In this document: piece after piece, positions 357 to 49,980 of the stretch
Layout: every line of letters begins with the position of its first letter
How positions within the stretch are numbered: position 1 is the first letter of the stretch
Assembly (NCBI GenBank): GCA_951406725.2
Contig: OX597821.1
Location: 89,094,001 to 89,158,000 of the forward strand
Reading direction: 5' to 3'
Source of the DNA: Octopus vulgaris
Taxonomy: Eukaryota
Length of the DNA stretch: 64,000 nucleotides
The notes under the pieces: model-generated
Databases searched by the model: none
The model's input: the letters and a program-made list of their open reading frames with translations, nothing else
Told to the model about the DNA's origin: nothing
Program-made: the position numbers and the translations under genes

Positions 357-3248
<2,892 letters not shown>

Positions 3249-3514
3249 TCAATATAGGGTGGCAAAAAAATTTTGTAGAATTCTTTTGCCACCAGCGGCC
3301 TAGTGGGAAAAAATTAAATAGTCATAGACCATTTTTAAGTTCAACATCGACAATCAAGGAACGGCCATAATAGGCCATTCACCCACTAGAAATAACAGCC
3401 AAAGCTTCAACCGCAAATAAAAATTAATTCCGTAAACCAGGGAGAAAATTTAAAAAACATTTACCTTGTAATTTCTTATACGATATACCGTTTCATCTGC
3501 TGATTAATGGTAAA

Positions 3515-3549
<35 letters not shown>

Positions 3550-3876
3550 GACCTAAAATTTTCAAATCGTCACACTCGCGCCAAATTTATCGGCAGCAAA
3601 TAAATATAAGCCGTCGATTCCATTACGGAATTAACCAGAAAATTCATAATTAATCAATATAGGGTGGCAAAAAAAATTTTGTAGAATTCTTTTGCCACCA
3701 GCGGCCTAGTGGGAAAAAATTAAATAGTCATAGACCATTTTTAAGTTCAACATCGACAATCAAGGAACGGCCATAATAGGGCCATTCACCCACTAGAAAT
3801 AACAGCCAAAGCTTCAACCGCAAATAAAAATTAATTCCGTAAACCAGGAGAAAATTTAAAAAACATTTACCTTGTA

Positions 3877-3983
3877 ATTTCTTATACGATATACCGTTTC
3901 ATCTGCTGATTAATGGTAAACTAACCTGATTAAATTAAATCAAGCCAATCTTCCAAAGGCCCTCAGATTCTTCAGTAAGAAAT
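3877..3983 (-). ncRNA. Type I hammerhead ribozyme (minus-strand copy)
   Basis: Reverse complement of 4269-4375. Confidence 0.85.
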
Positions 3984-4268
3984 AGCCCAAGTCGGAACAG
4001 ATATTTTCACGAGGCAAATCCGACCTTGCCAAGGTTATATCTGACCTAAAATTTTCAAATCGTCGCACTCGCGCCAAATTTATCGGCAGCAAATAAATAT
4101 AAGCCGTCGATTCCATTACGGAATCGACGGAATCGACGGAATCGACGGCTTATATTTATTTGCTGCCGATAAATTTGGCGCGAGTGCGACGATTTGAAAA
4201 TTTTAGGTCAGATATAACCTTGGCAAGGTCGGATTTGCCTCGTGAAAATATCTGTTCCGACTTGGGCT

Positions 4269-4375
4269 ATTTCTTACTGAAGAATCTGAGGGCCTTTGGA
4301 AGATTGGCTTGATTTAATTTAATCAGGTTAGTTTACCATTAATCAGCAGATGAAACGGTATATCGTATAAGAAAT
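4269..4375 (+). ncRNA. Type I hammerhead ribozyme
   Basis: Stem I ATTTCTTA(4269-76)/TAAGAAAT(4368-75); core CTGAAGA 4277-83; stem II ATCTG(4284-88)/CAGAT(4347-51); GAAA 4352-55; short stem III ACGGT-AT-ATCGT; GUA cleavage triplet 4365-67. Confidence 0.88.
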
Positions 4376-4759
4376 TACAAGGTAAATGTTTTTTAAATTT
4401 TCTCCTGGTTTACGGAATTAATTTTTATTTGCGGTTGAAGCTTTGGCTGTTATTTCTAGTGGGTGAATGGCCTATTATGGCCGTTCCTTGATTGTCGATG
4501 TTGAACTTAAAAATGGTCTATGACTATTTAATTTTTTCCCACTAGGCCGCTGGTGGCAAAAGAATTCTACAAAATTTTTTTGCTACCCTATATTGATTAA
4601 TTATGAATTTTCTGGTTAATTCCGTAATGGAATCGACGGCTTATATTTATTTGCTGCCGATAAATTTGGCGCGAGTGCGACGATTTGAAAATTTTAGGTC
4701 AGATATAACCTTGGCAAGGTCGGATTTGCCTCGTGAAAATATCTGTTCCGACTTGGGCT

Positions 4760-4866
4760 ATTTCTTACTGAAGAATCTGAGGGCCTTTGGAAGATTGGCT
4801 TGATTTAATTTAATCAGGTTAGTTTACCATTAATCAGCAGATGAAACGGTATATCGTATAAGAAAT
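4760..4866 (+). ncRNA. Type I hammerhead ribozyme (second tandem copy)
   Basis: Same motif 491 nt downstream; predicted cleavage after 4858. Confidence 0.88.
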
Positions 4867-4963
4867 TACAAGGTAAATGTTTTTTAAATTTTCTCCTGGT
4901 TTACGGAATTAATTTTTATTTGCGGTTGAAGCTTTGGCTGTTATTTCTAGTGGGTGAATGGCC

Positions 4964-4965
<2 letters not shown>

Positions 4966-5014
<49 letters not shown>

Positions 5015-5066
5015 ATATATATATATAGACATATATGCATACATATGCATGTACGTGTATTTATGT

Positions 5067-5152
<86 letters not shown>
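4966..5152. repeat. (TA)n-rich microsatellite
   Basis: Seen directly. Confidence 0.95.
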
Positions 5153-5156
<4 letters not shown>

Positions 5157-49169: not shown

Positions 49170-49980
49170 GTTTTCAATTTTTGGCACCAGGCCAATAGGT
49201 TCGGGGAAGGGTGTAAATCGATAACATTGACTATAGTGTTTAACTATCATTTATCTTACCCAACCCCGAAAGGATGAAAGGCAAAGTCGACCTCGGCAGA
49301 ATTTGAACTCAGAACGTTAAGACGGGCGAAATACCGCTATGCATTTCTTCCAGTGTTCTAACGATTCTGCCAGCTCGCTGCCTCAAAGCTCTTAAATAAT
49401 CCTTTTTACTAAAAGCCACAAGGTCTGAAATTTGGTTGGAGGCGACTTGTCGATTGCATCGATTTCAGTATTTCACTGGTACTCAATTCATCGACCCCGA
49501 AAGGACGAAAGGCAAAGTCAACCGCGGCGGAACTTGAACTCAAAACAGCGACAGGCGAAATACCTATTTCTTTACTACCTACAAGGAGCTAAACACAGAG
49601 GGGACAAACAAGGACAGACAAACGGATTAAGTCGATTATATCGACCCCAGTGCGTAACTGGTACTTATTTAATCGACCCCAAAAGGATGAAAGGCAAAGT
49701 CGACCTCGGCGGAACTTGAACTCAGAACGTAGCGACAGGTGAAATACCTATTTCTTTACTACCTACAAGGTGCTAAACACAGAGGGGACAAACAAGGACA
49801 GACAAACGGATCAAGACGATTACATCGACCCCAGTGACCAACTGGTACTTATTTAATCGACCCTGAAAGGATGAAAGACAAAGTCGACCTCGGCGGAATT
49901 TGATCTCAGAACGTAGCGGCAGACGAAATACCGCTAAGTATTTCACCTGGCGTGCTAACGTTTCTGCCAGCTCGCCGCCT
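49170..49980 (-). mobile_element. Family C SINE followed by a tandem SINE trimer
   Basis: Monomer 49170-49383; trimer 49401-49980 with 184-bp period, flanked by CAAAGCTCTTAAATAAT at 49384-400 and 49981-97. Confidence 0.88.

Follow-up and report, generated by a model that had tools for sequence, protein, structure and literature searches.

A two-armed insertion in a TA microsatellite

The window, by which we mean the whole 64,000-nucleotide stretch that was analysed, contains at 3241-4969 an insertion in (TA)n made of two arms of a 491-nt unit whose tails both point outwards, with about 1.7 units on the + strand and about 1.75 units on the - strand. We number the unit from U1 = 4138. The preliminary description had taken this place for a 491-bp tandem repeat. 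The + unit is indeed repeated on the + strand, but the locus as a whole is not a plain tandem: it is an inverted insertion, and that description had neither its two-armed architecture nor the two fixed 3' ends reported below.

On the left, the target microsatellite is visible as (TA)16 at 3212-3243. The outer part of the left arm (3241-3518, - strand) covers U191-U467 and terminates, on its 3' side, at the distal fixed end U467. It carries the locus-private variant U359C, in common with other segments of this locus, and half a hammerhead at 3471-3499 on the - strand (the 3' strand of stem II, GAAA, stem III and the 3' strand of stem I, the 5' half being absent). There follows a (TA)15 tract at 3518-3547, which stands in place of U80-U190, and then the inner part of the arm (3543-4124, - strand), made of U482-491, one full unit and U1-79; it includes a type I hammerhead, found by the descriptor scan at 3877-3983 on the - strand, with its predicted cut between 3885 and 3884. 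A locus-private variant is present on both sides of the (TA)15. This points to one insertion, and the tract may come from a template jump, from a deletion that occurred later or from a faulty assembly.

The arms meet head to head at 4115-4148, where a 9-bp unit is repeated about 3.4 times and where the inner ends, U482 and U1, lie 10 nt apart on the unit. This 9-mer repeat is a templated insertion. The right arm (4138-4969, + strand) is made of the unit 4138-4628 followed by 4629-4969, which is 100% identical to it, and it runs into a TA-rich flank at 4967-5153. On its + strand one finds the proximal 3'-end module at 4469-4499 (a GGCC hairpin, 5 nt, TTGATT, 6 nt), leading to the fixed end U362 = 4499, and the distal one at 4552-4604 (a GGTGGCAAAA hairpin followed by the same 5 nt, TTGATT and 6 nt arrangement), leading to the fixed end U467 = 4604. 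The segment U363-U467, 105 nt long, is the one-sided tail. The GGTGGCAAAA helix had been noticed before and exists with one correction: on the + copy it pairs with TTTTGCTACC through one G.U pair, and its perfect version lies in the - arm. In the window locus the right arm stops at U341 (4969) and not at the usual U362. A T>C change at 4496 (U359), three bases before the usual proximal end, is found among the sampled loci only in the window locus, and it may have shifted the RT start to U341 (n=1). The window locus belongs to the read-through class defined below.

The unit has a GC content of 35.6% and is non-coding, its longest internal stop-to-stop frame being 69 aa; the earlier view that it holds no credible ORF is thus upheld. 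Next to the insertion, a 494-aa ORF at 1648-3132 encodes a LINE-type RT (RVT_1), which we rejected as the mobiliser. Two other copies of the LINE continue past the break point with neither TA nor unit, and the right flank of the insertion does not resume the LINE. Hence, we concluded that the LINE is a neighbour and not a part of the element. The RT frame lies within a broken LINE-type element (1057-3211, - strand), with frameshifted pieces on both its sides; the 5' part of this element is absent exactly where the (TA)n flank begins, and its other copies are 96% identical. Elsewhere in the window, 49475-49932 is a tandem repeat of 184 bp in 2.5 copies which are 90% alike.

The hammerhead and its family

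The hammerhead at 4269-4375 (+ strand) consists of an 8-bp stem I (4269-4276/4368-4375), CUGAAGA (4277-4283), stem II (4284-4288/4347-4351) closing 58 nt, GAAA (4352-4355), stem III (4355-4358/4363-4366) inside the 12-nt near-palindrome 4355-4366, and GUA, with the cut predicted after 4367 (U230). A second + copy at 4760-4866 is identical, with its cut predicted after 4858. Every core element reported earlier as present and paired was found at its position. This arrangement, a CUGANGA/GAAA/NUH core and three helices of which helix I is open, is that of a type I hammerhead. The segment between the two cuts, 4368-4858 on the + strand, is the predicted 491-nt monomer, which could be released and circularised.

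A descriptor search run on the two strands of the 64-kb window gave exactly three hammerheads (3877 on the - strand, 4269 and 4760 on the + strand), all at the places given in the preliminary description. An Rfam search of the hammerhead stretches of the window found no hammerhead family at E<=10. The Rfam miss is likely caused by the long stem II and reflects the library and not a failed structural feature; hammerheads with a long stem II escape Rfam. We disregarded the microRNA hits of Rfam in the window, which lie below the gathering scores and are repeat or palindrome noise. The 58-nt insert in stem II remains atypical, as remarked before, whereas the monomer length, which had also been called atypical, is not: 491 nt is inside the published retrozyme lengths, 51-972 bp in vertebrates (bioRxiv 10.64898/2026.07.22.740005) and 150 to >1000 nt in metazoan retrozymes (PMC7229834).

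The ribozyme has a folding z of -3.8, and the cut-to-cut monomer 4368-4858, folded as a circle, is highly structured (z about -5). We aligned 15 monomers taken from the main family and from a sister group. RNAalifold recovered stems I and III unaided; 94.7% of the cells of the named structure pair, and two-sided changes occur at 5 of its 13 named pairs. The covariation score was higher than in 500 out of 500 shuffles and than in all the slid controls, with covarying pairs stemming from only two to four lineages, that is from few independent events. The sister subfamilies have compensatory changes in stems I-III and retain the 12-nt palindrome. In a sample partly selected on these very motifs, and omitting two non-ribozyme matches, 194 of 198 cores read CUGANGA, position 7 (the N) taking all four bases, and the palindrome is fully pairable (all 12 duplex pairs) in 199 of 202 ribozyme copies. 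Its loop is TATA or TGCA, and the form with a single change is absent from the sampled ribozyme copies. The ribozyme is under selection.

Taken as a hairpin, stem III contributes about 0 kcal/mol, against -13.6/-15.1 as a 12-bp duplex, and the active fold of a single monomer has a weight of about 1%. The unconstrained fold of 4269-4866 is a double hammerhead (P 0.98 vs 0.003). Hence, cleavage as a dimer is predicted by these models, as for the axolotl ribozymes (PMC7229834). In the wider context 4138-4969 the palindrome duplex stays (0.88), while copy 1 is predicted to lose its stems I and II. In a published account of Xenopus retrozymes, only 1 out of 9 is reported to cut in vitro.

In the whole genome (2.8 Gb, 227 contigs), we counted 805 exact matches of the 29-nt 3' half of the ribozyme, spread over many contigs, against 0 for the reversed control, so that the motif is not there by chance. 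The junction of the proximal end with (TA)n has 409 exact matches and that of the distal end 1121, the controls being 0 for both. The distal end is shared with older subfamilies, at about 75-97% identity. A sister group, 73-80% identical across the whole unit, has units of 479-490 nt and 117 motif matches. Arrays contain up to 10 ribozymes in a row.

Outside the ribozyme, the block at 4157-4212 (U20-75) is strongly conserved between subfamilies. It contains TTTGGCGCG and then TTTGAA, which resemble E2F and CHR promoter motifs. The regions upstream of 6 U2 loci match the unit no better than shuffles do, and so gave no sign of a U2-type promoter. The copies show no A>G excess which would indicate fixed A-to-I editing: of the 15 fixed variants private to one locus, 4 are A>G and 4 are T>C. 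Donor-like (4379-4387) and acceptor-like (4450-4459) splice sites lie just 3' of the predicted cut; the spliced joint of the putative intron 4382-4459 is absent from the contigs of sequencing runs. Contigs from eight such runs, of uncertain kind, contain unit pieces which bear five organism labels and have loose ends in (TA)n at 4499/4500 and at 4608; as contigs they show neither strand, RNA ends nor circles. One loose-end motif turned out to be single-copy and uninformative. Reads across 4858->4368, which had been proposed as a sign of circles, are not diagnostic, since this junction is also the genomic tandem junction.

Insertion ends and templates

We studied the insertion footprint in 37 loci, namely all the places listed for the 29-nt ribozyme motif on contig C1 and on the first 148 Mb of contig C2. 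By hand count, 30 of them consist of two tail-out arms in (TA)n, one ending at about U362 and the other at about U467; some of the second arms measure 12-20 nt, and two are reached via a small internal skip. The other seven are single-armed, fragmented or chimeric. The same two ends are used in the 73-80%-identical sisters, and both come after a hairpin, five bases, TTGATT and six bases. An inverted 5'-truncated copy head to head with a direct copy, present in these 30 loci, together with a one-sided 3' tail, is what has been described for insertions of EN+ Penelope-like elements (PLEs; PMC8557442, PMC3846280), and PMC11167929 attributes it to RT starting at two internal sites, both strands of the target being extended. 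The resemblance to the EN+ insertions of these accounts extends to partial tandems, (TA)n targets and microhomology junctions; the octopus family differs from them by having neither RT nor GIY-YIG ORF and by a tail of 105 nt vs 30-40 bp. No target-site duplication is discernible, the flanks being (TA)n. A protein-coding PLE of the octopus genome (L056) shows the same two-armed pattern, with a one-sided tail of about 35 bp. Mobilisation by a PLE, which the preliminary description had put forward, is thus backed by the footprint, and it is from the footprint that the enzyme is inferred.

At insert-free head-to-head junctions we found a microhomology of at least 2 nt in 16 cases out of 22, against 18% by chance, a proportion which BLAST boundaries may inflate; 5 further junctions carry inserted bases. 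The inner ends of the two arms lie within 45 nt of each other in 13 of 27 loci, vs 5.1 when permuted. This proximity, together with some palindromic junctions with long overlaps (L086, L090), would suit a mechanism suggested for the Penelopes of rotifers (PMC3846280), namely self-priming fold-back on an antisense template. Such a fold-back would copy one arm into the other, yet the outer ends differ (362 vs 467), the inner ends are more than 45 nt apart in 14 of the 27 loci, and at one locus the arms come from two families. We consider it improbable. At this last locus (L104:3889-4392) one arm belongs to the main family and the other to a different hammerhead element with a CCGAAGA core, the two being joined head to head without TA. 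This shows that one RNA per insertion is not a strict rule. Two other loci deserve a description: at L109:3586-3769 the second "arm" is flanking genomic DNA inverted around the TA tract and not element sequence, and at L136:3700-4100 a sister-family fragment is folded back inside the ribozyme, with TA right after the splice-donor-like site.

The tandem organisation and some sign of local exchange between units could also suggest an ordinary minisatellite spread at the DNA level, with a vestigial ribozyme. This is hardly credible in view of the dispersal over many contigs, the (TA)n targeting and the compensatory stems, and it is contradicted by fixed 3' ends combined with variable 5' truncation.

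Sampling by the ribozyme motif hides short copies (0 of 54 ends lie at the cut in such a sample). We used instead an end-anchored sample, made of 63 of the 64 junctions between the proximal end and (TA)n listed for C1 and C2. In the first round, 20 of the 54 arms which reach U260 stop at U227-260, vs 3.0 expected (p 7e-11), and only one stops at U190-226. In later rounds there is no excess at the cut (3 of 34 vs 2.4 expected). The two arms behave alike: among the loci where both are long enough, both stop in 16 and both pass in 17 (omitting one complex locus), and 2 are discordant (p 7e-8). When both stop, the distal (467) arm does so behind the proximal (362) arm in 13 of the 14 untied pairs (p 0.002); when all 16 pairs are taken, the median offset is 12 nt. 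Since the arms stop together or read through together, the templates seem to have been cut linear molecules on the one hand and circular or uncut ones on the other.

By BLAST, 10 of the 20 stops fall at U227-238, in or atop stem I. Exact mapping places the modes of the stops at about U235-238 and about U252-258, at palindromic AT runs and not at U231, and it shows 6 arms extending 2-7 nt past the predicted cut. A rival explanation is therefore that the RT stalls at the folded region of stem I on an RNA which is not cut. The modal ends lie indeed 5-27 nt 3' of the cut and a few ends pass it; the structure would act in the first round only, even on a circle, and a leading RT, once stalled, could block a trailing one. 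Against this, half of the stops are at U227-238 with a sharp edge beyond, longer predicted helices elsewhere in the unit have no pile-up of ends, and the modal ends coincide with the palindromic AT runs which come first on the 3' side of the cut, as end-joining after run-off would give. We regard stalling as rather unlikely and find it fairly probable that the stops reflect run-off from the cut 5' end, the cDNA being then trimmed back to the nearest microhomology. The copies which stop 0-30 nt 3' of the predicted cut, about one third of those sampled, are then likely a record of RNA which was cut in the living animal before being copied.

The long copies tell more about the template. Over 219 segments from 51 loci, substitutions per site amount to 0.28% inside an arm, 0.45% from one arm to the other and 1.9% from locus to locus. 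The two arms agree fully at 18 subfamily-informative sites in 28 of 32 loci (mismatch 1.1% vs 35% permuted), which means that both come from one molecule or from one source. There are 18 haplotypes among 44 loci, with units almost identical inside one locus, and 15 locus-private variants are fixed in all the units that cover them, 7 of these spanning both arms. Of the 63 arms in the sample chosen by the motif, 34 are longer than one monomer, with a maximum of 9.4 units; hence a single linear monomer cannot be the only template. In some arrays, variants are common to a subset of the units, in one case with a period of three, and a single monomer circle does not explain these arrays. At 88.82 Mb of contig C12 (L010/L012/L026) and at L074, variants recur every three units or so within an arm, which suggests a trimer template, a later duplication or gene conversion. 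At L088:3823-4391 the plus arm is made of repeats of a sub-unit, U130-370, which suggests a 241-nt deleted circle or template jumps.

One may ask whether the long arrays need an RNA circle at all. They could have been copied from uncut linear multimers, or have grown later by unequal crossing-over: an anole PLE uses unprocessed RNA in vitro (PMC11167929), homogeneous source arrays would yield homogeneous daughters, and the variants shared by subsets of units or recurring with a period of three fit this explanation. It is less easy to reconcile with the diversity of loci (18 haplotypes for 44) when units are nearly identical in each of them and private variants are fixed, as this would need a bottleneck of one monomer at each generation. 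Moreover the ends of later rounds do not pile up at the cut, unlike what the 5' ends of partly cut multimers would give. We hold this explanation to be rather unlikely.

Penelope-like elements and known retrozymes

The preliminary description had considered that the element would be simply a pseudo-LTR if all its copies were attached to a PLE ORF. This is not the case: by tblastn, none of the 146 unit loci sampled (40 + 27 + 79) has a contiguous PLE ORF. Seven of them have a PLE piece nearby, at least 0.4 kb away (four loci, L120, L226, L233 and L241, were inspected and three judged by coordinates). Conversely, among 70 PLE endonuclease loci of at least four families, found via PF01541 and a Hydra-like endonuclease query, none carries the unit as an end, and one has a separate 57-bp stub of it. 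No DNA was found in common between the unit and the four PLE families sampled, so that the footprint is what suggests the enzyme. The element has no ORF with PLE RT and GIY-YIG and hence does not itself qualify as an autonomous PLE.

Could the repeat nevertheless be no more than the pseudo-LTR belonging to an autonomous PLE, with the arrays as truncated by-products? The PLE footprint speaks for it, as does a splice-donor-like AG/GTAAAT located 14 nt after the cut, splice donors being found near the 5' introns of PLEs. The units are, however, head to tail and devoid of ORF, and the two counts above (0 of 146 and 0 of 70) leave this reading quite improbable. The unit has instead these properties of non-LTR retrozymes: two or more units following one another in tandem, all with a complete type I hammerhead which covaries; a non-coding sequence of GC below 45% and of a length within about 150-1000 nt; and, in the 146-locus sample, dispersed copies independent of an RT ORF. 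The retrozyme reading of the preliminary description is thereby strengthened. We have good reasons to regard these copies as a new and young family of non-LTR retrozymes, likely mobilised by PLEs. The family likely behaves like a non-autonomous cargo of PLEs.

Its cycle would be the following. Arrays would be transcribed into multimers, in which neighbouring ribozymes are predicted to pair through the 12-nt palindrome, to cut as a double hammerhead and to free 491-nt monomers, some of which a host ligase may circularise. The endonuclease and the RT of an autonomous Penelope-like element would act in trans: the GIY-YIG nuclease would cut both strands of (TA)n, and each cut 3' end would prime RT within the RNA, from U362 for one of them and from U467 for the other. 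When the template is a cut linear monomer, both cDNAs would run out near its 5' end (U231) and leave a stub of about 340 bp without ribozyme; on a circle or an uncut multimer, they would read through and make arrays of up to 9 units. The cDNA ends would then be joined head to head via microhomology, often with templated insertions, a pathway proposed on account of the junctions that we see. Going one step further, we suggest tentatively that the retrozyme cycle, in its entirety, is recorded in the genome by this family. Two PLE RTs would sit in tandem on one RNA, at the two look-alike hairpin-N5-UUGAUU modules, one for each DNA strand; on a cut monomer they would run off and leave a dead stub, and on a ligated circle they would roll and generate new ribozyme arrays. 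If this is true, cleavage and then ligation decide whether an insertion can breed, and the hammerhead gains a defined role in PLE-type transposition.

The retrozyme class was already known; the element is not of a new kind, and the gain lies in mechanistic evidence. The non-LTR retrozymes of Metazoa (coral, mussel, axolotl; PMC7229834) are also non-coding, tandem, of type I and low in GC, with a dimer-dependent stem III in the axolotl as predicted for octopus, and PLEs have been proposed as their mobiliser in the same article. The octopus family is set apart from them by insertions in (TA)n with two arms, by two fixed 3' ends, by the insert of 58 nt in stem II and by stubs ending at the cut; that article mentions neither octopus, nor cephalopods, nor inverted copies, nor the target site. 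Its authors demonstrated circles and cleavage experimentally; those of the octopus family are predicted. The vertebrate non-LTR retrozymes (bioRxiv 10.64898/2026.07.22.740005) belong to the same class and co-occur with PLEs. There the link with PLEs is a homology with pLTRs, which we did not find in the octopus family, where the link is the insertion footprint; the accessible text of this preprint covers 35 genomes, names no mollusc class and does not analyse the insertion footprint.

In the in vitro TPRT of the anole Poseidon PAc (PMC11167929), there are likewise two internal RT starts downstream of the hammerhead, both AT-rich target strands are extended and a protein dimer is predicted. The starts of PAc are adjacent and are used alike on both strands, while those of the octopus family are separated by 105 nt, each arm having its own; and PAc works mainly on uncut RNA, while about one third of the octopus insertions look derived from cut RNA. 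The minimal hammerheads of PLEs (PMC4209133) are also of type I, with a palindromic helix III region and a dimer-type activity, and the bulge at the start of their helix II exists in the octopus sister subfamilies too. The octopus hammerhead differs from this minimal type by a 4-bp helix III lying in a 12-nt palindrome and by a long hairpin inside helix II. In the literature outside subscription journals and supplements, we came across neither a retrozyme of octopus nor an analysis of the ends of retrozyme insertions. The present analysis adds the evidence from covariation and for a double hammerhead, the finding that the two arms stop together at the cut, the chimeric locus and the shared start module. 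The published accounts, as far as they are accessible, leave open how retrozymes return into animal genomes and what the hammerheads of PLEs are for. With hundreds of young insertions, fixed starts and two classes of template, the octopus family offers exact substrates and predictions for the existing in vitro PLE assay.

Finally, we must note two PLE families of the octopus genome. One (L056, L058) has a minimal hammerhead with a CCGAAGA core and inverted arms of 766 bp which are 100% identical. The other (L051-L054, L065, L066) is young and has many intact RT-GIY-YIG frames of 781 aa, before which lies a second long ORF; its direct repeats of about 500 bp end in (TA)n.
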